DNA of 64,000 bases from Mustelus asterias (lineage: Eukaryota). The translations under genes and the position numbers were made by a program. Positions 11,821-54,254 of this stretch are shown in pieces (within the stretch, counting starts at the first letter, position 1; each line of letters opens with the position of its first letter). Location of the stretch: NCBI RefSeq assembly GCF_964213995.1, contig NW_027590150.1, positions 434,001 through 498,000 of the forward strand. The letters are read 5' to 3'. The notes under the pieces are model-generated. The model searched no databases, was not told the DNA's origin, and saw nothing but the letters and a program-made list of their open reading frames with translations.

Positions 11821-12111
11821 TTGATTCAACCTTTAACTTCAATACATTTATTTAACTCAAATGTCCTCATTCTGAATTGAATATCTCTGAAATAGAGAAC
11901 ATTGAATTGCAAGCATGACTGACCAACAAAAGAAAGCGAGTCACTGGGAAATACACATCCCATGGTACCTTTTTGAAATTGACCGCAGTCAGCTTTCAAA
12001 CAAAAGCAAATATCTTTCAAGGGAAGAGATTTAAGAATGATCTGTTAGTTATACTTGATCCTTCTTTATTCTGTGTGTCGAACATTCTGGCGCTTAAATA
12101 TCTTTCATCTA

Positions 12112-13222
12112 CAAGGTACTAACATGGATTGACGATTGGCTGTCAGACAGAAGGCAGAGAGTTGGGATAAAAGGTTCTTTCTCAGAATGGCAACCGGTGA
12201 CAAGTGGTGTCCCGCAGGGTTCAGTGTTGGGGCCACAGCTGTTCTCTTTATATATTAACGATCTAGATGACGGGACTGGGAGCATTCTGGCCAAGTTTGC
12301 CGATGATACAAAGATAGGTGGAGGGGCAGGTAGTATTGAGGAGGTGGGGAGGCTGCAGAAAGATTTAGACAGTTTAGGAGAGTGGTCCAAGAAGTGGCTG
12401 ATGAAATTCAACGTGGGCAAGTGCGAGGTCGTACACTTTGGAAAAAAGAATAGAGGCATGGACTATTTTCTAAACGGTGACAAAATTCATAATGCTAAAG
12501 TGCAAAGGGACTTGGGAGTCCTAGTCCAGGATTCTCTAAAGGTAAACTTGCAGGTTGAGTCCGTAATTAGGAAAGCAAATGTAATGTTGTCATTTATCTC
12601 AAGAGGCTTGGAATACAAAAGCAGGGATGTACTTCTGAGGCTTTATAAAGCACTGGTTAGGCCCCATTTGGAGTACTGTGAGCAATTTTGGGCCCCACAC
12701 CTCAGGAAGGACATACTGGCACTGGAGCGGGTCCAGCGGAGATTCACACGGATGATCCCAGGAATGGTAGGCCTGACATACGATGAACGTCTGAGGATCG
12801 TGGGATTATATTCATTGGAGTTTAGGAGGTTGAGGGGAGATCTGATAGAAACTTACAAGATAATGAACGGCTTAGATAGGATGGACGTAGGGAAGTTGTT
12901 TCCATTAACAGGGGAGACTAGGACGCGGGGGCACAGCCTTAGAATAAAAGGGAGTCACTTTAGAACAGAGATGAGGAGAAATTTCTTCAGCCAGAGAGTG
13001 GTGGGTCTGTGGAATTCATTGCCACAGAGGGCTGTGGAGGCCGAGACGTTGAGCGTCTTCAAGACAGAAATTGATAAATTCTTGATTTCTCGAGGAATTA
13101 AGGGCTATGGGGAGAGAGCGGGTAAATGGAGTTGAAATCAACCATGATTGAATGGTGGAGTGGACTCGATGGGCCGAATGGCCTTACTTCCGCTCCTATG
13201 TCTTATGGTCTTATGGTCTTAT
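12112..13222 (+). mobile_element. Young CR1-type LINE 3' fragment
   Basis: Open RT C-terminal ORF 12197-13135; (TCTTATGG)n tail; translation differs by one residue from the 51952-54249 ORF. Confidence 0.95.
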
Positions 13223-13645
13223 AGGAGGTTCGCACTGATTTCCGATTTCCTCATCGGCCTGAATGGTCTTTCCCATTTCTTTATCAGGAAGAACAATTTT
13301 AAAAATAAGCTTCGAAGCAATGTGTGCCATTTCCTCTAGTTCAGTTACAGTTTCACTTGTGTCTGTCCTTATGAGCCCGCACTGCTGGGAGACATGTTTC
13401 AGATGGTGATTAAAGCTCTTAGTCTGCACCTGTAAACGCATTAAATTTTATTGTGGACTGAACGGGTTGCGAATATGCATACAAACAATACAGACATTTA
13501 TTTCCTGCCATTGCATCCTAAAACACGGCAATTCTGATTTTCCTAAAGACAATTGAGTTACTGTAAGATCCGATTTTCCCAAAAGCATTTGAGTTGGTGT
13601 AACATCGAGATTCACATAACGTTGAGCAATGATGGTTGCACAGTG

Positions 13646-13957
13646 GGGGCGGCACAGCATCACAGTGGTTAGCACTGCGGTCTCACAGAGACCTGGGTTC
13701 GATTCCTGGCTTGCGTCACTGTCTGTGTTGAGTTTGCACGTTCTCCCCGTGTCTGTGTGGGGTTCCCCGGGTCCTCTGGTTTCCTCCTACAGTCCAGAGA
13801 GTTGCGGGTGAGGCGGGTTGGCCATGCAAAATTGCCCCTTAGTGTCAGGGGGACGAGCCAGGTAAATACATGGGGTAATGGGGATAGGGCCTGGGTGGGA
13901 TTGTGTTCGGTGCAGCTTCGATGGGCCGAATTGCCTCATTCTTCAGTATGTGATTCT
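13646..13957 (+). mobile_element. HE1/V-SINE
   Basis: tRNA-like head, V core and CR1-like tail. Confidence 0.8.
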
Positions 13958-14010
13958 CGGAAGTTAAACTATGCAGGCTTCGCACGCCATTAATAAGAAA
14001 GGTCCCAAAG

Positions 14011-14083
14011 TGTTTCTGTCGGGTTTTGATACGGGAATCTTTCGAGTGTGAGGCGAACGTGATAACCATGACATTACATGAAC
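14011..14083 (-). pseudogene. tRNA-Val(CAC) pseudogene
   Basis: Reverse complement of a Val tRNA, with several stem and T-loop mismatches. Confidence 0.8.
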
Positions 14084-15257
14084 AGCTGACAGCATATTTT
14101 AGCTAATCGGCATGTCTGCAATGTCCAACTGCGCTGCGCTGCTGCAGGTTCCAATGGTTAGACTGAGAGCCCATGTCACTGAATTCAAGAAGAAAACTGG
14201 TACTTTTAACCTGATTTCACAACTTATCTTGAACATCAAAATTTAAAAGCTTTCGTCTGGCAAATATCTGAGGGAGCAATGATTTCTGCCCATTCATTAA
14301 TGCATCATTCTCATCTTCCTTCGAATAATCTCAAACAATTGTACTCATTAATAAAAGTAATTACTGCGGATGCTGGAATCGGAAACCAAAAGAGAAAATG
14401 CTGGAAAATCTCGCAATATCTCAGCATCTGTAAGGAGAGAGAAGGGCTGACGATTCGAGTCCAGATGGCACTGTGTCAAAGCTAATTGAGCAATTGCACT
14501 CAGTATTTGTTTCAATATTTAGTATCAATGCATTATTTAACACATATGTCTTCATTATTAATTGAATATCTCTGGAATTGAATGTCACAGAATTGCAAAC
14601 ATAACTGACTAACAGAACGAATCGAATCACCGGGTAATACAGATCGCAATTTTGAGATTGATCATAGCCAGCTTTTAAACAAAGTCAACTACGTTTAATT
14701 GGAAGTGATTCAAAAATGAACTTTTCGTGACACTTGGGCCTTTTTTTTATCTAGGGGGTGAAATATTCAGGCGCATAAATTCCGACCATTTATAGGAAAG
14801 TCCAGAAGATCTGCACTGAGTCCCGATTCCCTCATCTGTCTGAGTGTTTTTTTTTCTATTTCCTTGTTGTGAACAACGATTTTAAAATGGAATCTTCTGG
14901 GAAATGAGCGCCATTTCCGATAGATCACTTACAATATCACTTGTGTCAGTCTTCTGGAGCAGACACTACTATTAGATATATTTCAGACGGTGATTAGCCA
15001 TGTCAGTCTGCACCTGTAAACCCATTAAATTCTGTTGTAGACTGAACGAGATGCGAATATGTGCACAGTGTCAAAATCGAAACGTTTCTTTCCTGTCAGT
15101 GCATCAAAACAAAATCAGCATTTCTTATTTTACAGAAAACATTAGAGGCCGATGTCAGAGCCGATAATATGCCTGTAATACCGAGGTTCAGATAATGTTG
15201 AGGAACGAACTGAAATCATGCAATTTTCCTTCACCCGACATGAGAAATCTTAATGAA

Positions 15258-15330
15258 TGTTTCTGCTTCGTTTGGAACCAGGATCCTTCCGCGTGTCAGA
15301 CGAACATAATAACCACTACACTACAGAAAC
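15258..15330 (-). pseudogene. tRNA-Val-derived pseudogene, anticodon GAC
   Basis: GTTTCTGTAGTGTAGTGGTTATTATGTTCGTCTGACACGCGG...; T arm degenerate. Confidence 0.8.
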
Positions 15331-16449
15331 AGCTGGACGCAAGCTGCAGCAAATCGGCCTGTCCGCAATGTTCAACTGCTGCAGGTTCCAATGGTTAGAC
15401 TGAGAGCACATGTCACTTAATTCAGGAAGATAACCGTTGCTTTCAATCTGATTGCTCAACTTATCATGAACTTCAAAAGTTAAAAGCGTTCTTCTGGCAA
15501 ATATCTAAGGGAACAATGATTTCTGGCCATTCATTAATGCATCATTCTCATCTTCCTTCGACTAATCTCAACCAATTTTACTCAGCGATAAAAGCAAATT
15601 CCCGCGGAAACTGGAATCGGAAACCAAACGAAAAAATGCTGGTAAATCACAAAACGTCTGCCAGCACCTGTAAGGAGAGAAATGAGCTGATGTTTCGAAT
15701 CCAGGTGACACTTTAACAAAGTTCATTGTACAATTGTACTCAGTATTTGTTTCAGTATTTAGTCTGAATGCATTATTTAACACATATGTCTTCATTATGA
15801 ATTGTATATCTCTGAAATTCAATACAATAGAATTGCAAATATAACTGACCAACATGAATCGAGTCACCGGGGAATACAGATCACAATTATGAGATTGACC
15901 ATAGCGAACGACATTTAAACAAAGTGAACTACATTTAAATAGACGAGATTGAAGAATTATCTGCTATTGACACTTGTGTCTTTTTTATTATGGGCGTGAA
16001 ATATTAAGGCACATAAATTCCGGACACTTAAATGAAAGTCCAGTAGATCCGCACTAAGTCTCGATTTCCTCATCTGTCTGAGTGGTTTTTTTTTTCCTAT
16101 TTCTTTGTTTTGAAGAACGATTAAAGAAAAAGATTATTCTGGGAAATGTGCGCCATTTCCGATAGTTCGCTTGCAGTATCACTTGTGTTAGTCCCCTGGA
16201 GCACATACTACAATTCGAACAGTTCCAGATGGTGATTAGCTACGTTAATCTGCACCCATAAACTCATTAAATTCTGTTGTTGACTGAACGTGATGCGAAT
16301 ATGTGCACAGTGTCAAAATCGAAATGTTTCTTTCCTGTCATTTCGTCACAAAGCTATCAACATTCTTATTTTACAGAAAGCACTTGAGGCCGAGGTCAGA
16401 GCAAAGATCATATGGCTGCAATATCAAGATTCGGATAACGTTCAGCAAC

Positions 16450-17224
16450 GAAGGTCTAATACAGATAGGAAATATACAGTAAATGGCAGCACCCTTAAGA
16501 GTATTGATAGGCAAAGGGATCTGGGTGTACAAGTACACAGGTCACTGAAAGTGGCAATGCAGGTGGAGAAGGTAGTCAAGAAGGCATACCGCATGCTTGC
16601 CTTCATCGGCCGGGGCATTGAGTTTAAAAATTGGCAAGTCATGTTGCAGCTTTATTGAACCTTATTTAGGCCGCACTTGGAATATCGTGTTGAATTCTGG
16701 TTGCCACACAACCAGAAGGATGTGGAGCTTTGGAGAGGGTACATAAAAGATTTACCAGGATGTTGCGTGGTATGGAGAGGATTAGCTACGAGGAGAGATT
16801 GCAGAAACTTGGTTTGTTCTCACTAGAGCGACGGAGGTTGAGGGGCGACCTGATAGAAGTCTACAAGATTATGAGAGGCATGGACAGAATGGATAGTCAG
16901 AAGCTTTTTTCCTAGGGTGGAAGAGTCAATGACTAGGGGACATAGGTTTAAGTTGCGAGGGGTAAGGTTTAAAGGAGATGTACGAGGCAGAATTTTTACA
17001 CAGGGTTTCGTGGGTGTCTGGGACTTGTTGCCAGGGGAAGTAGTGGAAGCGAATACGGTCGTGACTTTTAAGGGGCGTCTTGACAAGTACATGAATAGGA
17101 ATGGGAACAGAGGGATATGGTCCCCGGAAGGATCGGGGTTTTAGTTAATTCGGGCAGCATGGTCGGTGCAGGGTTGGAGGGCCGAAGGGCCTGTTCCTGT
17201 GCTGTAATATTCTTTGTTCTTTGT
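16450..17224 (+). mobile_element. CR1-type LINE 3' fragment inside a tRNA-Val unit
   Basis: RDLGVQVH...LAFIGRGIEFK; (TTCTTTG)n tail; splits the unit sequence gttcagcaacga|actgaaatc. Confidence 0.9.
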
Positions 17225-17643
17225 ACTGAAATCATACAGATTTTCCTCAATCTAAATTAGGAAGCTCAATAAATGTTTCTGCCAGGTTTTGAACCGGGAA
17301 CCTTTCGCCTCTCTGCAATTTTCAACTGCGCTGTATTGCTGCAGTTTCAAATGATTAGACTGAGAGCCCATGTCACTTGTTTCAGGAAGATAACCGTTAC
17401 TTTCAATGTGATTGCTCAACTTATCTTGAACTTCAAAATTTGAAAGCGATCGCCTGGCAAATATCTAAGGGATCAATGATTTCTGCTCATTCACTAATGC
17501 ATCATATTCATCTTCCTTCGAATAATCTCAACCACTTGTGCTCATTAATAAAAGCAAATTACTGCGGATGATGGATTCTGAAACCAAAGGAGAAAATGCT
17601 GGAAAATCTCATATGGTCTGGCAGCATCTGTAAGGAGAGAAAG

Positions 17644-17684
17644 GAGCTGACGTTTCGAGTCCAGATGACACTTTGTCAAAGCTC
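17644..17684 (-). ncRNA. Minimal type-I hammerhead ribozyme motif, U3-A8 variant (best-preserved copy)
   Basis: Minus strand reads GAGCT TTGACAA A GTGTC ATCTG GACTC GAA ACGT C AGCTC: stem I GAGCT/AGCTC, core UUGACAA and GAA, stem II with one U-U mismatch, palindromic ACGU in place of stem III, GUC cleavage triplet. Confidence 0.65.
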
Positions 17685-18108
17685 ATTGTACAATTGTACT
17701 CAGTATTTGTTTCAATATTTAGTATCAATGCGTTATTTAACACATATGTCTTCATTATGAATTGAATATCTCTGAACTTGAATATCACTGAATTGCAAAC
17801 ATAACTGGCCAACTGAAAGAGTCGAATCACCGGGTAATACAGATCCCATGGTGTTTGTTTGAGATTGGCCATCGTCAGCTTTTAAACAAAGTCAACTATA
17901 ATTAAATGGAAGAGATTGAACAATTATCTGTTAGGTATACTTGAGCCTTTTTATTATAAGTGTGAAACATTCAGGCGCATAAATTCCAGCCAGCTATAGG
18001 AAAGATTAGTTGATCCGCACTGAGTCTCCATTTCCTCATCTGTCTGAGTGTTTTTTTTCCGATTTCCATGTGATGAAGCAACATTTTAAAAAAAGATTCT
18101 TCTGGGAA

Positions 18109-21100
18109 ATAGAACATAGAACATAGAAAGCCACAGCACAAACAGGCCCTTCGGCCCACAAGTTGCGCCGATCACATCCCCACCTCTAGGCCTATCTATA
18201 GCCCTCAATCCCATTAAATCCCATGTACTCATCCAGAAGTCTCTTAAAAGACCCCAACGAGTTTGCCTCCACCACCACCGACGTCAGCCGATTCCACTCA
18301 CCCACCACCCTCTGAGTGAAAAACTTACCCCTGACATCCCCCCTGTACCTACCCCCCAGCACCTTAAACCTGTGTCCTCTCGTAGCAACCATTTCAGCCC
18401 TTGGAAATAGCCTCTGAGAGTCTACCCTATCCAGACCTCTCAACATCTTGTAAACCTCTATCAGATCACCTCTCATCCTTCGTCTCTCCAGGGAGAAGAG
18501 ACCAAGCTCCCTCAACCTATCCTCATAAGGCATGCCCCCCAATCCAGGCAACATCCTTGTAAATCTCCTCTGCACCCTTTCAATGGCTTCAACATCTTTC
18601 CTGTAATGAGGTGACCAGAACTGCGCGCAGTACTCCAAGTGGGGTCTAACCAGGGTCCTATAAAGCTGCAGCATTATCTCCCGACTCCTAAACTCAATCC
18701 CTCGATTAATGAAGGCCAGTACACCGTACGCCTTCTTGACCGCATCCTCCACCTGCGAGGCCGATTTAAGAGTCCTATGGACCCGGACCCCAAGGTCCTT
18801 CTGATCCTCTACACTGCTAAGAATGGTACCCTTCATATTATACTGCTGCTTCATCCCATTGGATCTGCCAAAATGGATCACCACACACTTATCCGGGTTG
18901 AAGTCCATCTGCCACTTCTCCGCCCAGTCTTGCATTCTATCTATGTCTCGCTGCAACTTCTGACATCCCTCCAAACTATCCACAACACCACCTACCTTGG
19001 TGTCGTCAGCAAACTTACCAACCCATCCCTCCACTTCCTCATCCAGTTCATTTATGAAAATGACAAACAGCAAGGGTCCCAGAACAGATCCCTGGGGCAC
19101 TCCACTGGTCACTGACCTCCATGCAGAGAAAGACCCCTCCACAGCCACTCTCTGCCTTCTGCAGGCAAGCCAGTTCTGGATCCACAAGGCAACAGCCCCT
19201 TGGATCCCATGCCCTCTCACTTTCTCAAGAAGTCTTGCATGGGGGACCTTATCGAACGCCTTGCTGAAGTCCATATAGACCACATCCACCGCTCTTCCTT
19301 CGTAAGGCACGACCTGCCCTTGACAAAGCCGTGCTGACTACTTTTGATCATACTAAACTTCTCTCAGGATCCTCTCCATCAACTTACCAACCACTGAGGT
19401 TAGACTCACCGGTCGGTAATTTCCCGGGCTGTCCCTGTTCCCTTTCCTGAATATAGGGACCACATCTGCAATCCTCCAATCCTCCGGAACCTCTCCCGTC
19501 TCCATCGACGATGCAAAGATCATCGCCAAAGGCTCCGCAATCTCCTCCCTCGCCTCCCACAGTAACCTGGGGTACATCCCATCCGGTCCCGGCGACTTAC
19601 CAACCTTGATGCCATTCAATAGTTCCAACACATCCTCTTTCTTTATGTCCACATGCTCGATCCTTTCTGTCCACCGCAAACCAGCAGTACAACCACCCAG
19701 ATCCCTTTCCACCGTGAATACCGAGGTAAAGTATTCATTAAGCAGCTCCGCCATTTCTAACGGTTCCGCACAAACTTTTCCCCCTTCACCTTTTAAGGGT
19801 CCTATGCCTTCACATCTCATCCTTTTACTCTTGACATATTTGTAGAAAGCCTTGGGATTCTCCTTAATCTTACCCGCCAAGGCCTTCTCATGACCCCTTC
19901 TCGCTCTCGTAATTTCCTTCTTAAGCTCCTTCCTACATCCCGTATACTCCTCTAAATCCTTAACACCTCCTAGCTCTCTGAACCTTCTGTACGCCTCTCT
20001 TTTCTTATTCACCAGGTTCATCACAACCTTCGTGCACCACGGTTCCCGTACCCTACCAACACCCCCCTGTCTCATCGGAACGTTGTCATGCAGAGCTCCA
20101 GACAAACATTCCTTGAAAATCCTCCACTTTCCTTTGGTACTTTTCCCCAAGAATGCCTCCTTCCAATTTACCCGTCTAATTTCCTCCCTGATGACACTGT
20201 ATTTCCCTTTACTCCAGAGAAACACTTTCCTAGCCTGCCTGATCCTATCTCTTTCCAATGCTATCGTGAAGGAGATAGAATTATGATCGCTATCCCCAAG
20301 ATGCTCACCCACCGAGAGATCCTCCACCTGTCCAGGTTCATTAGCCAGCACCAGATCAAGTACAGCCTCTCCTCTAGTAGGCTTATCCACATACTGTGTC
20401 AGGAAACTCTCCTGGACACACCTAACAAACTCCTCTCCATCCAAACCCCTAGCCCTAGGGATATTCCAATCTATGTTTGGGAAATTAAAATCTCCCATCA
20501 CGACAACTCTGTTATTCCTACATCTCTCCAGGATCTGTTTCCCCATCTGCTCCTCAACATCTCTGTTACTATTGGGCGGCCTATAGAAAACACCCAGCAA
20601 CGTTACCGACCCCTTCCTGTTCCTAACCTCCACCCACAGAGACTCCGTAGTCAATCCCTCCACGGCGTCCACCTTCTCTACAGCCGTGACACTATCCCTG
20701 ATCAACAGTGCCACTCCCCCCCCCTCTCTTGCCTCCCTCCCTGTCCTTCCTGAAACATCTAAAACCCGGCACCTGAAGCACCCAGTCCTGTCCCTGAGAC
20801 ATCCAAGTCTCCGTAATGGCCACCACATCACAATTCGAAGCAGCAATCCACGCTCTAAGCTCATCCACTTTATTCACTACACTCCTGGCATTAAAATAGA
20901 CACATCTCAGACCTTCAGCCTGAGCACTTCCCTTCTCCATCACTCGTCTAACCTCCCTCTTACCCTGTTTACATTCCTTATCTATTTCCGAGCTAACCTC
21001 CTCGCTCTCAGTCCCCTCATTTCGATTCCCTCCCCCCAACCTTTCTAGTTTAAAGTCTCTCCAGTAGCCTTAGCCAACCTTCCCGCCAGGATATTGGTCC

Positions 21101-21800
21101 CCCTGGGATTCAAGTGCCACCCGTCTTTTTTAAACAGGTCACACCTGCCCCTAAAGAGGTCCCAATGATCCAAGTACCCAAATCCTTGTCCCTTGCTCCA
21201 GACCCTCAGCCACGCATTCATTCTCCACCGATTCCTGTTCTCACTCTCCCGCGGCACAGGCAGCAATCCCGAGATTACTACCTTTGCATTCCTCTTTCTC
21301 AGCTGTCTACCTAACTCCCTATATTCTCTTTTCATGACCCCTTCCCTTTTCCTACCTATGTCAGCAGTACCTATATGCATCACGACCTTCGGCTCCTCTC
21401 CCTCCCCCTTCAGGATTTCTGGGACTCGACCAGAGACATCCCGGACCCCTGCACCAGGGAGGCAAACCACCATCCGAGAGTCCCGTCTGTGTCCGCAAAA
21501 ACGCCTATCTGACCCCCTCACCGTAGAGTCCCCAATTAGCACTACCCTCCTTTCCTTACCCTTTTGCACTACTGGGCCAGGCTCAGCTCCAGAGACACTG
21601 CCACCGCTGCTTCCCCCAGGTGGGCTGTCCACCCCAGTAGTACTCAGACAGGAGTACTTATTATTAAGGGGCACATCCATCGGGGTGCTCACCATCAACC
21701 GAGCTTTCTCCTTCCTCACTGTTACCCAGTTACCCTCCTCCCGTGGTCCCGGTGTGACCACCTGCCGATAGCTCCTGTCAATGACCTCCTCACTATCCAT
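18109..21800 (-). mobile_element. Near-full-length CR1 LINE: ORF1 SGNH/GDSL esterase (21045-~21790) and broken ORF2 APE endonuclease/RT
   Basis: ORF1 VLIGDS...CLPGA...HIGT.D...DGWHLN; ORF2 YFNARS, ITETW, FYRPP, MGDFN, SDHN, FADD; frameshift near 20710 and deletions near 19300-19355; (TTCTATG)n tail. Confidence 0.95.
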
Positions 21801-21836
21801 TGTGAGGAGGTCATTGACAGGAGCTATCGGCAGGTG
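21759..21836. repeat. Perfect 35-bp inverted repeat with 8-nt loop at the LINE 5' junction
   Basis: CACCTGCCGATAGCTCCTGTCAATGACCTCCTCAC tatccatt GTGAGGAGGTCATTGACAGGAGCTATCGGCAGGTG. Confidence 0.95.
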
Positions 21837-23757
21837 CGCCATTTCCCCGAGTTCACTTTGAGTATCACTTGTGTTTGTCTTTTTGAGCACACACTCCTAT
21901 TAGACATGCTTCAGATGGTGATTCGCTATTTTAGTTTGCCCCTGTGAACCCATTAAATTTTGTTGTCCACTGAACAAGATGATACTATGTGCAGGTTGTC
22001 AAAGTAGAGACGTTTCTTTCCTGTCAGTGCGTCAAAAAAATCAGCGTTTCTTATTCACAGAAACCATTTGAGGTTGAGTTCAGAGGAAATATAATATTGT
22101 TGTAATATCGAGATTCGGATAATGGTCAGCAACGAACTGAAATCATACAGGATTTCCCTCATCTTACATGAGAAAGCTTAACGAATGCTGTTTCCCCGTT
22201 TCGGACCGGGGACTCTTCGTGTTTTAGGGGAACGGGATAACCACTCCACTGCAGCTAGCATTGGGGCCTCAATGGCCCTGACTACAATGTTTAACTCCAC
22301 TTTGTTGCTGCAGGTTTGAATGGTATGATTGAGGGCCCATGTCACTTAATACAACAGCACATCCCTGACTTTCAACCCGATATCTCAACTTACCTTGTTC
22401 TTCAAAATTAAAAAGTGTTCGTCCGGCAAATATCTAAGGAAGCACTGATTTGTGCTCAATTATTAATGCGCCATTCTTATCTTCCTGCGAATAATTTCAA
22501 CCAATTATACTCAGTATCTGTTTCATAGAATCAGTGCAGAAACGGCCAATCGGCCCAACGAATCAGCAGCGACGCCAGAGTATCATAACCAGGCCATTAC
22601 CCCTGCTGTCCCCACAACGCTACTCTTTCCCCATGGCTAATCAATCTAACCGAGGGGCAATGCCCAATCCACCTTGGATCATCATTCAATTTTTAATATC
22701 AATACAGATTTTTAATATATATATGTCCAAATTCTGAATTTAATATCTCTGGAATATGCAATTGGTCTGACTGCATTGTTCAACCCCGCTCTATTGCTGC
22801 AGGTTCGAATGGTTAGACTGAGAGTCCATGTACCTCCGTGCAAGAGACAACCGTTACTTGCAACGTGATGTCTCAACTTGTCTCGAATTTCAAAATTTAA
22901 AAACATTCATCGGACAAATGTCTAAGGGAGCAATGATTTCTGCTCCATCGTGAATGCGTCATTCTCATATACCATCGATTAACTTCAACCACTTATATCC
23001 AGTATTTGTTCGGCAATCAACATTTACTATCAATCCAGTTATTTAACACAGATGTCCTCATTGCGAATTGAATATGTCTGAAATATACAAAATTAAATTG
23101 CAAACATTACTGACCAACAAAATAAATCGAGTCACGGGTAATACACATCCAATGGTGCTTTTTTGAGTTTGACCATGATCAGCCTTTAAACCAAATCAAA
23201 TATATTTAAAGGAAAGAGATTCAAGAATGATCTGCCAGTTATACTTGATCCCTCTTTATTCTGTGTGTGAAACATTCTGGCACCTAAATCTCGTTCATCT
23301 ATAGGAGATCCAGAAGGTCCGCTTTGATTCTCGATTTCCTCTTCTGTCTGAGAGGTTTTCCCTATTTCGTTATTATGAAGAACAATTTTAAAAAGATGCT
23401 TCGGGGAAATGTTCTCCATTTTCTCTACTTCAGTTACAGTATCACTTGTATCTGTATTTGTGAGCACACAATACTATTAGACATGTTTCAGTTGGTGATG
23501 AATTATGTTAGTCTGCATTTATAAACCTATTAAATTCGGGAGTGGGCTGAAAATATTGCTAATATGTGCACGGTTTTAAAATAGGAACATCTATTTCCTC
23601 TCATTGCGTCATGAAAATACAAGGTTTCTGATTTTGCTGAAAGCTTTTGAGGTGAGCGCAAATATAACATGGCTGTAACATCGAGTTTTGGATAATGTTC
23701 AGCTACAATCTGAAATTATACAGACTTCCCTCAACCTTAATGGACAAATGTCATTAA

Positions 23758-23830
23758 TGATTCTGCTCGATTTCGAACGTGGGCCCTTGCGTGCGTGAGG
23801 CAAATGCAATCAGCACTACACCACAGAAAC
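23758..23830 (-). pseudogene. tRNA-Val(CAC) pseudogene
   Basis: GTTTCTGTGGTGTAGTG...GCCTCACGC...GTTCGAAATCGAGCAGAATCA, many mismatches. Confidence 0.75.
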
Positions 23831-24518
23831 TGTTGGCTGCTCCGTAGCCCAATGGGGCTGAGTTGATATGTTGCAATATTCGTTGGGAATGCTGGAGACA
23901 CATTAATCTAAGAATGATTGAAAATGGTTAACAATGTCACAGAACGATGAGAGGCTCATCAATCCATCAGATCTTTGCGAATTATTTTATGAGGAGCTGA
24001 ATAATTAAGATGTCGTTGCGGGATTGATGGGTCGAAGGGCCTGTTCCTGTCCTGAACTGTTCTTTGTTCCAATTTCAATTTCCTCCTCTAATTCCATGAA
24101 GTTGATGTTTCTCCCTTTTAAGTCATTGAAAAATCCCAATTTGAAGAAGGAGTTTCTGCGGAATCCATGGACAATTTGCTTTAACAACCTTTCCCTTACC
24201 CAATGGCAGCAAGTATTGGATTTAGCTTCCTGATATAGTTTTCAACGTAAACATATATTTATTTTTGCAATTGATTTTATATCGATTTTACAAAACGAAT
24301 TTAAATCTGATGAAGCATCTCCTCATTATTTCTGAATTATACCTAATATAACTACATTTACTCCACAACCTTCCACAGAGTGTGGAATATAACAGACGAG
24401 AATAAATCACCTACACCTGAAGCAGTCTTCTTGTGCTGTCCTCCTGTGTCCTGAACATCCAATCCGAAAACCTCGAGAATGGATGGAGAATCTGTCTTAT
24501 TCACACGGACTTCACATA

Positions 24519-24700
24519 GGCCAACACAGTGGCACAGTGGTTAGTACTGCTGTTTCACAATGCTAGGGACCCGGGTTCAATTGAAATTCCTCCTTCGTGT
24601 ACACGAATAGGCGGCGGAATGTGGCGACGAGAGGATTTTCACAGTAACTTGAATTATTAATTGCAGGATTAATGTAAGCCTGGTTGTGACACTAGTAAAT
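24519..24700 (+). mobile_element. SINE with tRNA-like head and a different (non-CR1) tail, internally deleted
   Basis: GGCACAGTGGTTAGTACTGCTG...GGGTTCAATT joined to GGATTTTCACAGTAAC...GTAAGCC..TTGTGACACTAGTAAA. Confidence 0.55.
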
Positions 24701-25243
24701 ATGTTTTGCACACGGACACATCCAGAATATGTTTGGCGTAAAAATAAATATATCCATTATTGCTTATTCTGCAAAAGGGTCCACGTCGATTTGTCAATCA
24801 ATGATCACCATTGATGAGAAATAGATTTCTGGCTGCTCCTGTTGTTAAAATGTTGTGTTCCATCGCAATGAGTATCTAACACGATATTGCCGCACTTACA
24901 CCACACCAGGGAATTCCAGTTCAGGAAGTTTACTCTGGAGCTAGCACGCTTTTTACGTTGCCAATGAGTTCATGTCTCTTTTGTGTGTCAATGGCTGTGC
25001 CAATCTGCTTGGTTATCTTTCTTAGTGATTGTCCGTGTGTCTCGTGGAACAAGCTGCCAGAGGTATTAGTAGAGGCCGTTACAAGTTTATCTTTTAAAAA
25101 GCATTTAGATAGTATATGGGTACGATGGGTATAGAGTGATATGGGCCAAATGCGGGCAATTGAGATTAGCTGAGGGGTTTAAACAAAAACGGGCGGCATG
25201 GACAAGTTGGGCCGAAGGGCCTGTTTCCATGCTGTAAACCTCC

Positions 25244-25735
25244 AGAGATTTTAGAGAGAGTGCAGAGGAGGTTTACCAGGATGTTGCCTGGTATGGAAGG
25301 GCTTAGTTATGAGGAGAGATTGGGTAAACTGGGGTTGTTCTCACTGGAAAGACGGAGGAAGAGGGGTGACCTAAGAGAGGTGTATAAAATTATGAAAGGC
25401 ATAGATAGAGTGAACGGTGAGAAGCTTTTTCCCAGGTCGGTGGTGACGTTCATGAGGGGTCATAGGTTCAAGATGAGGGGTGGAGGGGGGGGGGGGGGGA
25501 GGTTTAATACGGATATCAGAAGGAGGTATTTTACACAGAGGGTGGTGGGGGCCTGGAATGCGCTGCCGGGCAAGGTGGTGGAGGTGGTGGGAACGTTTAA
25601 GACTTATCTAGATAGCCACATGAACGGAGTGGGAATGGAGGGATACAAAAGAATGGTCTAGTTGGGACCAGGGAGCGGCGCGGGCTTGGAGGGCCGAAGG
25701 GCCTGTTCCTGTGCTGTATTGTTCTTTGTTCTTTG
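25244..25735 (+). mobile_element. CR1-type LINE 3' fragment nested in the tail of another CR1; absent from the right arm
   Basis: QRRFTRMLPG...FTQRVVGAWNALP; empty site at ~59455-59480. Confidence 0.9.
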
Positions 25736-26512
25736 ACTCTATGACTCTATGTTTGAGTCGATCGGTTTGGGAATCTATCACTTAGTTTACTGGTCTCTGT
25801 GTTGATTCTGTGCAGTATCTGAGACTTCCAGTGAACACGGAGGTGGAGGTATTCATGCATTATCATGGTTAGCAACGCAAACTAATAGGTGTCAGAAATC
25901 TGCAGAATAATTCTGGATTTATAACGAGGGACGTTAGAATTGATGTCACTGTCTGGGCATATATCTATATGGTTATATATCCTTATTCGTGTTGGTCTTT
26001 CCACGTGACCGTGTGTCTATCTGTTCTCCGCATGTCTGCTGGGTTTCCTCGGGTGCTGTGGTTTCCTCCAACAGACCAAAGATGTGCGGATTAGGTGGAT
26101 TGGCCATGATAAATTGACCCCTAGTGTCAGGGAGATTATGTGTGCGGTTACGGGAATAGGGCCTCGGTGGAATTGTGGTCGGTACAGATTCGCTGGGCCG
26201 AATGGCCTCCTTCTGTACTGTAGGGGTTCTATGATTCAATGTTCTCTATAAGTGTCAGTCTTTTCAGGTTGCCGCGTGTGTCCCTGTTTCCAATATGCGG
26301 CTGTGCTGTCCACGGGAGAGTACTCTCTGATCACTTATGAAAGATCACAATCCCTTTCTAAAGGAAGCGTCTGTTTGAAGATGTAAAGATGGGCGGAGAG
26401 ATGGAGTCACTTTGGACCTCATAACATCCCCCTGACTGTTTCAACATCTCCAATTGCAGATCTGATTCAGACAGTGATCAGTCTCTCTGTTTCTGCTGTT
26501 CAGACTCGAACC

Positions 26513-26984
26513 ATGGGGGTGAAACTCTGTCTCACTCTGGTTATTGTCCTGATTACAGGTCTGTCATTTTGAACTTCTGCGTGAAATCTGCCAGTCACCA
26601 CATTCATTCCCCATTTCCATCTGGAGGGGATTATTCCATTGTTGTTACTCCTTCTAACCCACTGCGTGTCTGTTACCTATTTTCAGACATGAGTAACGGT
26701 GACTCAGTGTCCCAGTCAGGACCAGGTGTTGAAGCAGCAGAGGGTGAAGATTCAGCAATACCCTGCAGTTACTCGGGACAGAGTTTAACTGTACAACATT
26801 ACTGTTCTGGTATCGCCAGTATACACACCGAGCTCCTCATTGACTGCTCAGAGCCGCGAATGTACGGGTCTCAAGGTTTTTTACATTGCAGCGGGAATCT
26901 CAACCTGAAACAAAGCACTTTTCACTTGCCCATGAAAGATTTGAAGGTGACAGACAGCACCGTGTATTACTGTGCACTGAGAGC
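26513..26984 (+). CDS. TCR alpha/delta V segment; leader 26513-26558, V exon 26687-26984; open frame but FR2 read out of frame
   Basis: Leader MGVKLCLTLVIVLIT, GT..AG intron, GDSVSQ...IPCSY...STFHLPMKDLKVTDSTVYYCALR, then a 23-RSS. WYRQ is encoded but in another frame. Confidence 0.85.
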
Positions 26985-27023
26985 CACAGTGAATGAGGCT
27001 CCCGCGGGCCTCATACAAAATCT
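26985..27023 (+). promoter_or_regulatory. 23-bp-spacer recombination signal sequence
   Basis: CACAGTG + 23 nt + ACAAAATCT. Confidence 0.95.
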
Positions 27024-27555
27024 GGCACAGGTCGATAATCAATGATTCATTGTCAGGACAACACATGGGGTTAAAAATCAGCGAAAATTTACTCATAGTG
27101 AACCTGACAATACAGTCCCGTCTAAGTGTTTTCCCTCACTGAGGTTACTGATTGTCACTGTTGGGAAGTTTGACATGTTTTTACTCATATTACTATCACA
27201 TCAAGTCCAATCGCTCCCCGATCCTTTCACACAAACCCACAGATCTCCCAGGTGAACCATGTCATCAGACAGACCACACCTTTCAAAAGTGATCAAGTTT
27301 CAAAGGCAGACTCAGAGTTGTCACATGTTGAAGTTGCTGGTTAAAATTATTGACTGTAACATGTGTACTTTATAAACAAAAACCCCCAGTTGCAAACAGT
27401 CGAGGTAACAATATTGGACGGATATTTTGCTGGAACTTAAAGTCCACAAATGCTGATGCGGTAAGTTATTTAATCAATTTCGGCTTTCACTCGAGGTGTC
27501 AGAACTGCTTTGTAGAAAGTTAAACAATTTTTATTTTGTTAGCTACTAACGTGCA

Positions 27556-27645
27556 GGTTCGTTGGTCTAGGGGTATGATTCTCGCTTAGGGTACCTCGCC
27601 CCATTAGCATGCGAGAGGTCCCGGGTTCAAATCCCGGACGAGCCC
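27556..27645 (+). tRNA. tRNA-Pro(AGG) with 18-nt intron (27592-27609)
   Basis: Exons match vertebrate Pro-AGG except one G-U acceptor pair; TACCTCGCCCCATTAGCA sits between nt 37 and 38; TTTT terminator at 27648-27651. Confidence 0.85.
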
Positions 27646-27982
27646 CGTTTTGACCGAAATATTGTGTTCGAAAGGAGATATTTTGATTTATTTAAGGTGC
27701 AAACGGCGGGATGGCTTTCTGCTGACTGGCTCCGAAAAAGAGTCATAAAGGCACAGAATCTTACAGCACGGATAGAGCCCACTGGGACACCCACATGGCA
27801 GGCGGGGACACCCACATGGCAGGCGCGGACACCCATCTGCGCCTGCCACGTGACAGCTGGACGGGAAGCGTTAGTTCTGATTCTCGCTGCACAGATACTT
27901 CCAGAAATGCTGACATAACCCAGCATTTTCTGTTTTTATTTCAGATTTTGAAAGTCCGCAGTGTGCGGCATTATATTAGACT

Positions 27983-28600
27983 TTGGGCTGACAAGTGGCA
28001 AGTAACATTCGCGCCAGACAAATGCCAGACAACGTCCATCACAAATAAGAGAAAATCTAACCACCGCCTCTTGACAGTCAATAGTTGTTCCATCACTGAA
28101 TCCCCCATTGTTAACATCCTTACGGTTACCATTGACCAGATACTCAATTGGACTCGCCACATAAACACAATGGCTACAAGAGCAGGTCAGAGGCCAGGAA
28201 TACTGTGGCGAATAACTCACCTCCTGACTCCCCAGAGCCTGTCCACCATCTACAAGGCACAAGTCAGGAGCGTGATGGAATATTCCCACCTCGCCTGGAT
28301 GGGTGCAGCTCCAACAACACACAAGAAGATTGACATCATCCAGGACAAAGCAGCCCGCTTGATTGGCACCACATCCTCAAGCATTCAATCCCGCCACAAC
28401 CGACGCTCAGGAGCAGCGATGTGTATTATCTAAAAGATACAGAGCAGCAATTTACCAACGATCCTTAGACAGCACCTTCGAAACCCACGACCACTTCCAT
28501 CCAGAAGGACAAGGGTAGTAGACACATGGGAACACCACCATCTGTAAGTTCTCCTCCAAGTCACTCACCATCCTGACTTGGAATTATATTGCCATTCCTT
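27983..28600 (+). mobile_element. Older CR1/L2-superfamily LINE 3' fragment (inverted copy ~56640-57255)
   Basis: WADKWQVTFAPDKCQ...LSTIYKAQVRSVMEYS...IQDKAARLIG. Confidence 0.8.
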
Positions 28601-28689
28601 AGCATGGCCTTATTCTGTGGTGTACTCATTTTCTGATTTAGTGCGGACCTCACCCTGAGGCCGTGAACCGCAAAGTATTTTCTCATTTC

Positions 28690-29435
28690 TGTCATCTCTC
28701 CCTCAATGTCAACAAAACGGAGATTGTCATTGACTTCAGAAAGCGTAGAGGAGAACATGCCCCTGTCTCCATCAAAGGGGACGAAGTAGAAAGTGTCGAG
28801 AGCTTCAGGTTTTTAGGTCTCCAGATCACCAACAGCCTGTCCTGGCCTCCCATGCCGACACTATAGTGAAGAAAGCCCATCAACGCCTCTACTTTCTCAG
28901 AAGACTTAGGAAATTTGGCATGTCAGCTACAACTGTCACCAAGTTTTACAGGTGCACCATAGAAAACATTCTTTCGAGTTGTATCACAGCTTGATATGGC
29001 TCCTGCTCTGCCCAAGACCGCAATAAACTACAAAGGGTCGTGAATGTAGTCCAATCCATCACTCAAACCAGCCTCCCATCCATTAATTCTGTCTACGCTT
29101 CCTGCTGCCTCGGCAAAGCAGCCAGCATTGTTAAGGACCCCACGCACCCGGACATTCTCTCTTCCACCTTCTTCCTTCGAGACAAAGATACAGAAGTCTG
29201 AGGTCACGTGCTAGCCGACTCAAGAACAGCTTCTTCCCTGCAGCCATCATACTTTTGAATGGCCATTACCTTGCATTAAGTTGATCTTTGTCTACACCCT
29301 GACAGTGACTGCAATACCACATTCTGCACTCCCGTTTCCTTCTCTATGAACAGTACGCTTTGTCTGTATAGCGCGCAAGTGAAAATGCTTTTCACAGCAT
29401 ACTATTACGTGACAATAATAAATAAAACTAAATCA
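28690..29435 (+). mobile_element. Rex1/Babar-like LINE 3' fragment (inverted copy ~55790-56545)
   Basis: LSLNVNKT.EIVIDFRK, VESFRFLG, KKAHQRLYFLRRLRKFG, FYRCTIE...CITAWYG; AATAAA-rich tail. Confidence 0.75.
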
Positions 29436-29702
29436 AATAGTTTCATTTCTCCTGACTTCCACACTCTTCCTGTTGTTACATTTCCTCCCTCCTGAGTTTC
29501 AGTCGTTTCAAATTCCCACATTTTTCACCTTTTCCTGTTGTAATGAAAGGCCATGGACGTAAAAGATGAGCTTTGTTTCCCTGTCCACAAATTCTGCCTG
29601 AATTCCTAAGTTTATGCAGCATCTTCCGCCTTCGCTGCAGTTATCTGATCGGCTTTGAATGGCCAACAGAGCATCTTTTCTTTCAATCAGTGGCTGCTTA
29701 TA

Positions 29703-29783
29703 GGCTCCTTGGTGTAGGGGTATGAATCGCATTTTGGTATGCCTTAACCACCGAGATCCCGAGTTAAAATCCGAGACTAACCC
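29703..29783 (+). pseudogene. tRNA-Pro(TGG)-derived pseudogene with ~9 extra nt 3' of the anticodon
   Basis: GGCTCCTTGGTGTAGGGGTATGA...TTTGG...AGATCCCGAGTTAAAATCCGAGACTAACCC. Confidence 0.6.
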
Positions 29784-29857
29784 TACTGTTTCTTCTTATC
29801 CCTGTTACATCAAAACATCGGAAGCAGGAGGAGGTCATTGGAACATCATCTACCATT

Positions 29858-30201
29858 CATAGAATCATAGAAACCCTACAGTGCAGAAGGAGGCCATTCG
29901 GCCCATCGAGTCTGCACCGACCACAATCCCACCCAGGCCCTATCCCTACCCCCACATATTTACCCGCTAATCCCTCTAACCTACGCATCTCAGGACTCTA
30001 AGGGGCAATTTTGAACCTGGCCAATCAACCTAACCCGCATATCTTTGGACTGTGGGAGGAAACCGGAGCACCCGGAGGAAACCCACGCAGACACGAGGAG
30101 AATGTGCAAACTCCACACAGACAGTGACCCGAGCAGGGAATCGAACCCGGGACCCTGGAGCTGTGAAGCAGCAGTGCTAACCATGTGCTACCGTGCCACC
30201 C
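29858..30201 (-). mobile_element. Young HE1/V-SINE, left arm only
   Basis: Full-length SINE; empty site near 55360-55380. Confidence 0.9.
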
Positions 30202-30469
30202 CTACCGTGCCTGATAATCAAATTCAATACCCTGATCCGCCATTTAGCACCAAGAGTATATTAAACTTCTCTTGAAATCATAGTGTTTGGCCTCAACGAC
30301 TTTCTGTGGGAGTGAACTCTGCAGATTCACCACTCTCTGGCTGAAGGAAGTCTCATCATCTCAGCCGTTATCCTCAAACTATAATCCCCAGCCCTGGACT
30401 CCCCACTAACGTGAACATTCTTTCTGAATCTACCCTGTTTCATCCGGTCAGAATGTTATAAGGTTCCAT

Positions 30470-30788
30470 TAGAATCATAGAATCCCTGAGTACAGAACAA
30501 GGCCAATTCGGCCCATCAAGTCTGTACTGACCACAACCCCATCCAGGCCCCACTCCTGTAACTACATGCATTCACCCTGCTAATACCCCTGACACTAGGG
30601 CCAATTTAACACGGTCAATCAACATTAGCCGCACACCTTTGGACAATGGGAGGAAACCGGAACACCCGGAGGAAACCCATGCAGATACGGGGAGAATGTG
30701 CAAACTCCACACAGACAGCGACCCGATGCCAGATTTGAACCTCGGACCCTGGCGTTTTGAGGCGGCAGTGCTAACCAATGTACCACCC
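30470..30788 (-). mobile_element. HE1/V-SINE shared by both arms (copy 54778-55097, +)
   Basis: V core plus head and tail. Confidence 0.85.
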
Positions 30789-30874
30789 AAAACATATCTG
30801 CCCAGAAATAGCCAGGATTAGTTGGCAAGAAATGCATTTGCCAATGTTGGACACCTAAGTGTTAAAATAAGCCG

Positions 30875-30947
30875 CATCCCAGAAGTGACTCGAACACACG
30901 CTCCCTGGTTTAGGAAGCCAGTGCCTTACGCGTTAGGTTACTGGGAC
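30875..30947 (-). pseudogene. tRNA-Arg(CCT) pseudogene
   Basis: GTCCCAGTAACCTAACGCGTAAGGCACTGGCTTCCTAAACCAGG...GTTCGAGTCACTTCTGGGATG; D-loop GG lost, T stem mismatched. Confidence 0.8.
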
Positions 30948-31329
30948 TATCGGTGAGCTACTGCTGCAACTTTAAAAAGCTGTATATCTCCATCCACATA
31001 GACAGTGACTAACCCCAGAATCGAAACCAGGTCCCTGGTATTGTGAGCCAGCAGAACTAGCCACTGTGCCCCTCTCTCCCACGAAGATTTGATCAGATTT
31101 CATGAGCTGCAGATTTTGTTTTTTTCTTTGCATTGCAGACTTTGGGATTGGTCCACATGGGGTTTCGTTTGAGAACCTGAGCACAAACTGTGAGGAAACT
31201 ATCAGCACAACACACTCGCTCGAAAATAAAGATATGATCAACAGGGTTGGCTATGTAACTTGACGTTCATTTTATCTCCATTCACCTCTTCAGCTGGCCC
31301 CATGATTATGGGTTCAGTGAGCTGCCTGG

Positions 31330-32265: not shown

Positions 32266-32338
32266 GGGCCAGTGGCGCAATGGATAACGCGTCTGACTAC
32301 GGATCAGAAGATTCCAGGTTCGACTCCTGACTGGCTCG
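32266..32338 (+). tRNA. tRNA-Arg(ACG)
   Basis: Matches the conserved vertebrate Arg-ACG except one base (C-A mismatch at the base of the T stem). Confidence 0.92.
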
Positions 32339-35296: not shown

Positions 35297-35419
35297 AAAC
35301 ATTGCCCCAGAGTGACAAGATGAACGGAGCAGAGAATGGTAATAATATTGGGCTATAAATAGAGCATGATTCACTCTGTGGTGCTTCTATACATTTTCGG
35401 TATTGCTGATATTCACAAC

Positions 35420-37918: not shown

Positions 37919-37957
37919 TACAGAGATAGAAAGAAGGCTCACCCTCATTCAGAAACC
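37919..37957 (+). promoter_or_regulatory. 23-RSS with mutated heptamer
   Basis: TACAGAG + 23 nt + TCAGAAACC. Confidence 0.8.
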
Positions 37958-51405: not shown

Positions 51406-51478
51406 GTTTCTGTAGTGTAGTGGTTACCACATTCGCCTAACACGCGAAGGGTCCCTGGTTCGAAACCAGGCAGAAACG
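51406..51478 (+). tRNA. tRNA-Val(AAC), best-folded array copy
   Basis: GTTTCTG/CAGAAAC, TTCGC/GCGAA and CCTGG/CCAGG all pair; discriminator is G rather than A. Confidence 0.8.
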
Positions 51479-51864
51479 TTCATTGAGCTTCCTCATGTCG
51501 CGTAAGGGAAAATTGATTGATTTTTGTTTGTTCCGAATCATTATACGAGCCTCGATGTTAACGGCATGTTATCATTGCTCTGACGTCACCCTCAAATGCA
51601 TTCTGTGAAATAAGAAACGCTTTTTTTTGACGCACTGACAGGAAAATTCGATTTTGACACCGAACACTTATTCGCATCTCGTTCAGTCTACAACAGAATT
51701 TAATGGGTTTATAGGTGCAGACTAATATGGTTAATCGCCATCTGAAATATCTGACAGTAGTGTGTGCTCAAAAAGACAGATACAAGTCATACTGTAAGTG
51801 AACTCGAGGAAATGGCGCACATTTCACAGAAGAATCTTTTTAAAATCGTTTTCATCACTGAGAA

Positions 51865-54254
51865 ATAAGACCATAAGACCATAAGACATAGGAGCGGAAG
51901 TAAGGCCATTCGGCCCATCGAGTCCACTCCACCATTCAATCATGGTTGATTTCAACTCCATTTACCCGCTCTCTCCCCATAGCCCTTAATTCCTCGAGAA
52001 ATCAAGAATTTATCAATTTCTGTCTTGAAGACGCTCAACGTCTCGGCCTCCACAGCCCTCTGTGGCAATGAATTCCACAGACCCACCACTCTCTGGCTGA
52101 AGAAATTTCTCCTCATCTCTGTTCTAAAGTGACTCCCTTTTATTCTAAGGCTGTGCCCCCGCGTCCTAGTCTCCCCTGTTAATGGAAACAACTTCCCTAC
52201 GTCCATCCTATCTAAGCCGTTCATTATCTTGTAAGTTTCTATCAGATCTCCCCTCAACCTCCTAAACTCCAATGAATATAATCCCACGATCCTCAGACGT
52301 TCATCGTATGTCAGGCCTACCATTCCTGGGATCATCCGTGTGAATCTCCGCTGGACCCGCTCCAGTGCCAGTATGTCCTTCCTGAGGTGTGGGGCCCAAA
52401 ATTGCTCACAGTACTCCAAATGGGGCCTAACCAGTGCTTTATAAAGCCTCAGAAGTACATCCCTGCTTTTGTATTCCAAGCCTCTTGAGATAAATGACAA
52501 CATTACATTTGCTTTCTTAATTACGGACTCAACCTGCAAGTTTACCTTTAGAGAATCCTGGACTAGGACTCCCAAGTCCCTTTGCACTTTAGCATTATGA
52601 ATTTTGTCACCGTTTAGAAAATAGTCCATGCCTCTATTCTTTTTTCCAAAGTGTACGACCTCGCACTTGCCCACGTTGAATTTCATCAGCCACTTCTTGG
52701 ACCACTCTCCTAAACTGTCTAAATCTTTCTGCAGCCTCCCCACCTCCTCAATACTACCTGCCCCTCCACCTATCTTTGTATCATCGGCAAACTTGGCCAG
52801 AATGCTCCCAGTCCCGTCATCTAGATCGTTAATATATAAAGAGAACAGCTGTGGCCCCAACACTGAACCCTGCGGGACACCACTTGTCACCGGTTGCCAT
52901 TCTGAGAAAGAACCTTTTATCCCAACTCTCTGCCTTCTGTCTGACAGCCAATCGTCAATCCATGTTAGTACCTTGCCTCGAATACCATGGGCCCTTATTT
53001 TACTCAGCAGTCTCCCGTGAGGCACCTTGTCAAAGGCCTTTTGGAAGTCAAGATAGATAACATCCATTGGCTCTCCTTGGTCTAACCTATTTGTTATCTC
53101 TTCAAAGAACTCTAACAGGTTTGTCAGGCACGACCTCCCCTTACTAAATCCATGCTGACTTGTCTTAATCCGACCCTGCACTTCCAAGAATTTAGAAATC
53201 TCATCCTTAACGATGGATTCTAGAATTTTGCCAACAACTGAGGTTAGGCTAATTGGCCTATAATTTTCCATCTTTTTTCTTGTTCCCTTCTTGAACAGTG
53301 GGGTTACAACAGCGATTTTCCAATCCTCTGGGACTTTCCCTGACTCCAGTGACTTTTGAAAGATCATAACTAACGCCTCCACTATTTCTTCAGCTATCTC
53401 CTTTAGAACTCTAGGATGTAGCCCATCTGGGCCCGGAGATTTATCAATTTTCAGACCTTTTAGTTTCTCTAGCACTTTCTCCTTTGTGATGGCAACCATA
53501 TTCAACTCTGCCCCCTGACTTTCCTGAATTGTTGGGATATTACTCATGTCTTCTACTGTGAAGACTGACGCAAAGTACTTATGAAGTTCCTCAGCTATTT
53601 CCTTGTCTCCCATCACTAGATTACCAGCGTCATTTTGGAGCGGCCCAATGTCTACTTTTGCCTCCCGTTTGTTTTTAATGTATTTAAAGAAACTTTTACT
53701 ATCATTCCTAATGTTACTGGCTAGCCTACCTTCATATTTGATCCTCTCCTTCCTTATTTCTCTCTTTGTTATCCTCTGTTTGTTTTTATAGCCTTCCCAA
53801 TCTTCTGACTTCCCACTACTCTTTGCCACATTATAGGCTCTCTCTTTTGCCTTGATGCATTCCCTGACTTCCTTTGTCAGCCATGGCTGCCTAATCCCCC
53901 CTCTGATAACCTTTCTTTTGTTTGGGATGAACCTCTGCACTGTGTCCTCAATTACTCCCAGAAACTCCTGCCATTGCTGTTCTACTGTCTTTCCCACTAG
54001 GCTCTGCTTCCAGTCGATTTTTGTCAGTTCCTCCCTCATGCGCCTGTAATTACCTTTATTTAACTGTAGAACCTTCACATCTGATTCTGCCTTCCTTCTT
54101 TCAAATTGCAGACTGAATTCTACCATATTATGATCACTGCTTCCTAAGTGTTCCCTTACTTTAAGATCTTTTATCACGTCTGGCTCATTACATAACACTA
54201 AGTCCAGAATAGCCTGTTCCCTCGTGGGCTCCATCACAAGCTGTTCCAAAAAGT
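51865..54254 (-). mobile_element. Young CR1-type LINE, 5'-truncated, uninterrupted 765-aa ORF2 portion (51952-54249)
   Basis: LDLVL, SDHN, KSPGPDG, QHGF, PQGSVLGP and FADD motifs; (TCTTATGG)n tail. Confidence 0.97.

Follow-up and report, generated by a model that had tools for sequence, protein, structure and literature searches.

The tandem tRNA-Val array in a 64,000-nucleotide stretch of the Mustelus asterias genome (NCBI RefSeq assembly GCF_964213995.1, contig NW_027590150.1, positions 434,001 to 498,000 of the forward strand; C118:434001-498000 of the 3.68-Gb genome; hereafter, the window) carries hammerhead ribozyme motifs in its spacers, and we find that these are very probably passengers. 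Each motif forms the first 41 nt of the 5′-truncated end of a Penelope-like element (PLE) lodged between 15-bp target-site duplications (TSDs) in the tRNA-Val spacer, which was likely inserted once and then copied passively, and which likely does not cleave. A first-pass annotation of the window had proposed that read-through transcripts of the array could be cut into unit-length tRNA-containing RNAs, adding the caveat that a passively amplified relic was at least as likely. The caveat is supported; the proposal is not, given an end bounded by TSDs, paralogous units with an empty site, a lack of constraint across 88 units, the loss of stem I from the youngest arrays and the absence of intact neighboring copies.

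Ten motifs occur in the window at the positions and on the strands originally reported, three on the minus strand (14444-14484, 15684-15724 and 17644-17684, each named by its low coordinate) and seven on the plus strand (starting at 42065, 44136, 45641, 46867, 48088, 49548 and 51015). The motif parses as stem I (GAGCT), U3-U4-G5-A6-N7-A8-A9, one extra A and stem II, followed by G12-A13-A14, the palindrome ACGT, C17 and the second arm of stem I (AGCTC). This layout is that of the published Penelope form and supports the earlier identification of a Penelope-type minimal type-I hammerhead; on the same parse, the predicted cut between 17649 and 17648 is correctly placed. The unit, described as ~1.2 kb long with the motif ~400 bp upstream of the tRNA, measures about 1.22 kb, with a distance of 391-439 bp in the six plus-strand units measured. 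The pairing of one co-oriented hammerhead with each tRNA-Val unit holds for ten units, but several homologous units in the same span have a tRNA-Val position and no hammerhead. Likewise, 17644 was said to be the only copy with both core and stem I intact; it does retain both, but so does 42065 (core, and 4/4 of stem I), the palindrome of which is broken, and 17644 alone in the window combines an intact core, stem I and palindrome. Stem II contains a U-U mismatch in 10/10 motifs, a feature that the first-pass annotation had not flagged. Folding of the motifs gave z-scores of -0.73 to +1.25, indicating that their stability is not unusual, and stem I is absent from the minimum-energy fold of the 46867 and 51015 copies. 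The Rfam search suggested earlier returned no hammerhead match at E ≤ 1, a result that is uninformative for minimal motifs.

Alignment of units with and without the motif delimited an insert of 124-137 bp that starts at the motif, with 6 extra bases before it, and is surrounded by a 15-bp TSD with 0-3 mismatches in 10/10 window copies. On the minus strand, the inserts span 14351-14484 (TSDs 14491-14505 and 14336-14350; core and stem I broken), 15588-15724 (TSDs 15731-15745 and 15573-15587; core, stem I and palindrome broken) and 17548-17684 (TSDs 17691-17705 and 17533-17547), the last holding the best-kept hammerhead, with core, stem I and palindrome intact and the U-U mismatch in stem II. The first and the last match the dispersed pseudo-long terminal repeat (pLTR) of the element over 120/133 and 127/135 nt, respectively. 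Those on the plus strand span 42065-42201 (TSDs 42044-42058 and 42202-42216; palindrome broken, three of five stem-II pairs), 44136-44271 (perfect 15-bp TSDs at 44115-44129 and 44272-44286; U16.1 changed), 45641-45777 (TSDs 45620-45634 and 45778-45792; core and stem I broken), 46867-46990 (of a subfamily with a 13-bp deletion; 3′ arm of stem I changed to CGCCC), 48088-48211 and 49548-49671 (stem I, stem II and palindrome broken in both) and 51015-51138 (stem I broken).

Empty target sites, in which a single copy of the TSD is present, were found in the window at 22502-22516 (minus strand; the tRNA-Val of this unit, at 22198-22254, is decayed), at 22990-23004 (minus strand, 5′ and 3′ flanks continuous) and at 40140-40154 (plus strand, in a unit with a tRNA-Val at 40407-40478). 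Genome-wide, an empty-junction search yielded 939 candidates, 40 of which were scored, and 30 loci were fetched. All 30 contained the empty site; 45 of the 46 matches spanning the junction were true empty sites and one was a filled unit with an internal deletion. Units of the empty type also bear decayed tRNA-Val; a filter sorting empty from filled units admitted some of the latter and supplies none of the counts given here. In a midpoint-rooted tree built from flanks only (a sample of 30 out of 79 filled units, plus 15 empty-junction matches after removal of redundancy), 14 true empties fell on one side of a branch with support of 100/99, apart from the filled units. The remaining match, L126, labelled empty, is a filled unit with an internal deletion; it groups with the filled units and accounts for the two changes on the tree. 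Because the empties form a separate deep branch, the possibility that they arose by later deletion was rejected for most of them, and the topology fits one insertion followed by amplification. Public contigs (three runs from two samples of one study, possibly the source of the assembly itself) contain joints that skip the insert, as well as hundreds of loose ends at 45776-45778, the 3′ end of the element, running into unlike sequence.

The same end is found dispersed through the genome, a 35-nt motif pattern giving 2,813 exact matches against 0 for its reversed control, which shows that the motif is no chance occurrence. The first 30 dispersed loci all match the tRNA unit inside the insert only, between the duplications, and the inserts of the window share 84-94% identity with the dispersed end. 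In most of these 30 loci the shared sequence upstream of the core amounts to no more than a few bases, indicative of 5′ truncation; 10 of them have a second motif on the opposite strand, and the 5′ end of locus L053 bears an inverted copy. PLEs are described in the available text of PMC8557442 as often truncated at the 5′ end and as having inverted 5′-truncated copies. Longer copies extend upstream into an endonuclease-like frame; there are 25,232 candidate places for these, and 150 of them were scored. Locus L051 has a 732-amino-acid open reading frame (ORF) with an RVT_1 score of 29.8 bits (cut-off 29.6; E 6e-7) and a GIY-YIG score of 17.3 bits (E 0.006) that falls below the cut-off of 22.6, and the motif follows on the same strand. 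L053 is similar, with both domains below cut-off. The untranslated region and the motif are contiguous in 45 of 52 ORF-selected loci; L050 and L052 represent the same place. In both L051 and L053, a C-X4-C-X2-C motif lies ahead of the GIY-YIG stretch, and a CX2-5CxxC linker between reverse transcriptase and endonuclease marks the Neptune/Nematis clade of PLEs, as far as the available text of PMC8557442 goes; taken by itself, this linker motif points to an element of Neptune/Nematis type. Judged by its ORF, by truncation and inversion, and by TSDs and empty sites, the insert is thus the 3′ end (pLTR) of an endonuclease-bearing PLE. No account of a Penelope end inside a tRNA array was found in the literature searched, subscription papers, supplements and repeat databases, which may hold the element family, lying outside that search. 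An older, decayed and related Penelope-type end lies at 57338-57393 on the minus strand, outside the tRNA array.

Comparison of the array with the dispersed element revealed a common change in stem II. Among 42 gap-free dispersed copies chosen by ORF rather than by motif, stem II reads GGGTC/GACTC and position 10.2 is G in 41; all five stem-II pairs are kept in 30/42 and all hammerhead features in 13/42. The array sample, 159 units in all, was drawn from the window and from 37 fetched loci and includes many near-identical duplicates. Position 10.2 is T in 154/159, creating a mismatch absent from the element, and the array junction pattern has 139 genome-wide matches with T and none with G or A. 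The substitution is predicted to weaken the hairpin from -3.9 to -1.5 kcal/mol. No array unit of the 159 combines all type-I hammerhead features. Stem I is kept in 28, and core, stem I and palindrome together in 10, eight of which lack G10.1-C11.1. Both copies retain core, stem I and palindrome in 0/110 adjacent co-oriented pairs, and stem I is kept in 0/33 copies from the five youngest and most homogeneous fetched arrays (repeats 95-99% identical). From these losses, the array ribozyme probably no longer cleaves.

Constraint was assessed as parsimony changes per site on a tree of non-redundant units, with 45 units and then with 88 under four matched nulls. With 88 units, the core had 2.92 changes per site where 2.85-3.46 were expected (P 0.30-0.57), revealing no constraint, and stems and core plus stems were equally unremarkable (P 0.24-0.79 over 12 tests). 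The 41-nt motif segment exceeded 61% of windows in variability, the pLTR outside the motif changed at the flank rate (3.44 vs 3.25-3.73), and tree-free diversity was 0.142 for the motif and 0.120-0.128 for the flanks. The core therefore changes as fast as its flanks, the outcome that the first-pass annotation had itself named as speaking against a working ribozyme. Since the motif decays as fast as its neighbors, a dead passenger is the likely reading, and a device for processing tRNA an unlikely one. Constraint on the core, borderline in the 45-unit set, was discarded as a candidate once gone in the 88. Non-CpG core sites of ORF-linked dispersed copies are also less variable (0.022) than the rest of the pLTR (0.037), suggesting an effect of base composition, though those copies also reflect active lineages. 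Separately, CpG sites are ~1.5 times more variable than other sites in the array flanks and ~3 times in dispersed Penelope copies, two measures that differ in method; hinting, as a sequence contrast, at lower germ-line methylation of tRNA arrays.

Several observations weigh against a dead, singly inserted passenger. Core letters are intact in 117/159 array units, and the 45-unit test gave 1.25 core changes per site against 2.39 expected (P 0.043), with stems at 2.3 against 2.6. The power of the core test is limited, because it covers 12 sites only, and the units recombine. In L121, a compensatory change restores five stem-II pairs, making it the only such array unit, but G12 is lost. According to the available text of PMC7229834, an axolotl hammerhead still cleaves when a U-U mismatch at the base of helix II is its only defect; by analogy, the 17644 copy, which as an isolated 41-mer is predicted to fold with a 5-bp stem I, may retain weak activity. 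Finally, one starred branch together with midpoint rooting falls short of proving a single insertion, and units recombine.

The tRNA genes themselves carry indirect signs of past or present transcription. The best-scoring tRNA-Val(AAC) of the array (51406-51478, plus strand, 59.9 bits) is preceded at 51389-51401 by the stretch (-17 to -5) that is hypervariable in the family alignment. Further plus-strand copies, variously decayed, start at 43289, 44575, 44818, 46045, 47258, 48480, 48656, 49940 and 50116 (overall span 43289-50188); on the minus strand, tRNA-Val positions lie at 14012-14078 (decayed), 15258-15330 and 17275-17308 (3′ half only) within 14012-17308, the tRNA of the 17644 unit lacking its 5′ half. 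Positions -17 to -6 accumulated 19.9 changes per site against 3.5 in flanks, where the highest 12-nt window reached 6.8, and 50 distinct strings occur there among 62 gap-free units, with conserved anchors on either side. In active tRNA genes, divergence peaks 12-15 nt 5′ of the mature tRNA (Thornlow et al. 2018, PMC6130373, available text). The hot spot suggests initiation by RNA polymerase III (Pol III) at this place, about 375 nt downstream of the ribozyme. The upstream peak and the raised rates in the gene and 3′ flank are shared with the transcription-associated mutagenesis described in the available text of PMC6130373; unlike in the active human tRNAs treated there, the tRNA body is not conserved in our array, and rates were read from paralogs of one genome. 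Since the body changes at ~2 times the flank rate, most copies look redundant. Each of five spacers holds 3-7 T-runs (≥4 T) before the next motif, and a run of 6-9 T lies within 210 nt after the tRNA in 5/5. The tRNA would thus belong, or have belonged, to a Pol III transcript that starts a short way before the gene and ends at nearby T-runs, which would normally leave the ribozyme outside. These signals leave room for RNA polymerase II (Pol II) read-through of the array. Two short contigs came from one run guessed to be RNA, and neither spans an insert junction.

Of the 139 junction matches found genome-wide, 100 were listed in contig order, all on C71 and smaller contigs; as the ordered list begins at C71, no array junction match lies on C1-C70. 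The pLTR pattern, in contrast, has at least 100 matches on C1 alone. Fetched arrays share recurring neighbors, such as a tRNA-Arg beside six of them. Young higher-order repeats of 2.68 kb in L111-L115 (C71 and C89) combine a 1.22-kb unit with one of 1.46 kb that has an additional tRNA copy, and are 95-99% identical; the 47.4-51.6 kb region of the window is of the same kind. Among filled units, the 13-bp deletion spread through the majority subfamily, and in one case most of the insert has gone. The contig distribution and the recurring neighbors fit tandem and segmental duplication, rather than retrotransposition, as the means by which units spread. Part of the array region recurs on C71 and C138 at 100% identity.

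As a sequence of events, the reverse transcriptase and GIY-YIG endonuclease of the element would have inserted a short cDNA by target-primed reverse transcription, the G-to-T change in stem II would have occurred at or soon after insertion, because nearly all array copies share the T, and the filled unit would then have multiplied by unequal crossing-over and segmental duplication. Were the array instead to behave as a retrozyme or newt satellite 2, every hammerhead in its read-through transcript would cleave, releasing tRNA-containing RNAs of 1.2 kb in linear or circular form. The co-oriented motif, one per filled unit, would suit such a scheme, as would the 117 intact cores, the initial core P of 0.043 and the proposal, in the available text of bioRxiv 10.64898/2026.07.22.740005, that animal retrozymes derive from PLE pLTRs. 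We nonetheless regard it as highly improbable, given that intact copies never adjoin (0/110), that the 88 units show no constraint, that stem I is gone from the youngest arrays, that empty units occur and that minimal PLE hammerheads displayed no monomer cleavage and low dimer cleavage (PMC4209133, available text). A related scenario, in which a dimer-type hammerhead functioned in the ancestral filled unit (best kept at 17644), cleaving Pol II read-through transcripts of the array to unit length, and still functions in some unsampled transcribed arrays, would make this a retrozyme born by capture of a tRNA unit; we consider it very unlikely. If true, it would amount to a ribozyme-processed tRNA array and a step in the origin of retrozymes.

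We likewise regard it as highly improbable that the whole 1.2-kb unit is a non-autonomous retroelement mobilized by Penelope machinery through a captured pLTR. A Pol III gene and the natural 3′ end of the element are indeed both present in the unit, but the pLTR lies inside it, between its own TSDs, and not at array ends, the listed arrays are restricted to C71 and smaller contigs with recurring neighbors, and duplication in the window reaches into flanking LINE (long interspersed nuclear element) copies. It is similarly doubtful in the extreme that the pLTR acted as DNA (promoter, boundary or recombination element) and not as a ribozyme in favoring expression or expansion of the filled tRNA-Val subfamily. 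The youngest and most homogeneous fetched arrays are indeed of the filled type, and, on visual inspection, decay seems further advanced in the tRNAs of empty-type units, a comparison that is biased because arrays were found with filled-type queries; against this stand the flank-like rate of the remaining pLTR, the 13-bp deletion in the majority subfamily and the unit lacking most of its insert.

Set beside known systems, the insert resembles the minimal PLE hammerheads described in the available text of Cervera and De la Peña 2014 (PMC4209133), in which helix I is short, a base between 9 and 10.1 is unpaired, G10.1-C11.1 and the U3-A8 variant of the core are present, and a palindrome replaces helix III. 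Type-I order, a 4-5-bp helix I and a palindromic 15.2-16.2 are shared, as is the occurrence of mostly solo motifs of truncated elements in a repeat downstream of an ORF with reverse transcriptase and GIY-YIG domains. Helix II has 5 bp in the element here and is mismatched in the array copies, and, unlike in that set, one solo copy has been multiplied by a host tandem unit. One co-oriented PLE-related type-I hammerhead per tandem unit is also the arrangement of non-LTR retrozymes, newt satellite 2 and Schistosoma Sm-alpha (PMC7229834; bioRxiv 10.64898/2026.07.22.740005, available texts), the units of which are 51-972 bp long, mostly 150-450 bp, and yield monomer and circular RNA. Retrozymes need two intact consecutive ribozymes (bioRxiv 10.64898/2026.07.22.740005; PMC6155905, available texts). 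Our unit differs in being 1.2 kb long, older than the arrival of the ribozyme and endowed with a tRNA gene, and it has no intact consecutive pair, no conservation of the ribozyme relative to the unit and, by the contigs on which its junction matches lie, no dispersed, transposed arrays. The likeness to a retrozyme is one of layout only; the insert works like a solo Penelope pLTR and nothing more. Tandem tRNA arrays amplify by unequal crossing-over and collect passenger retroelement insertions. The array of the window is like them in its tandem 1.2-kb units, birth-and-death decay, nested insertions of LINEs and short interspersed nuclear elements (SINEs) and segmental duplication, and differs in that the passenger happens to bear a ribozyme motif. 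It is an ordinary relic of an already known kind.

The rest of the window is a mosaic of LINE fragments, a ~330-bp SINE-like repeat, tRNA genes and large inverted duplications. The LINE fragments, which we take to be of CR1 type, carry long reverse transcriptase ORFs; two of them interrupt the unit at 42065, and a 78-bp near-perfect palindrome (21759-21836) lies where such an element meets a tRNA unit. Inverted segmental duplications pair 25003-31311 with 54256-59711 and 6818-11464 with 59710-63973 at 80-98% identity. The two arms of one of them contain immunoglobulin-superfamily V segments, at about 26430-27023 (plus strand; Pfam V-set E 2e-4) and about 58190-58800 (minus strand), presumably T-cell receptor alpha/delta-like, each with a frameshifted V exon and ending in a heptamer, a 23-bp spacer and a nonamer-like signal. 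Other tRNA genes or pseudogenes at 32266-32338 (plus), 1494-1566 (minus), 54620-54692 (plus) and 30875-30947 (minus) comprise Arg-ACG, Thr-TGT and two decayed copies in an inverted duplication, making the region a mixed tRNA cluster.

The array offers a control case, in that one hammerhead per tandem unit can come from a single hitch-hiking Penelope end. Since such an end mimics the retrozyme layout, retrozyme calls need both an empty-site check and a constraint test. The mutational hot spot upstream of the tRNA, at nearly six times the rate of the flanks and readable from the paralogs of one genome, further suggests a sequence-only way to tell which families of tRNA arrays had germ-line transcription.

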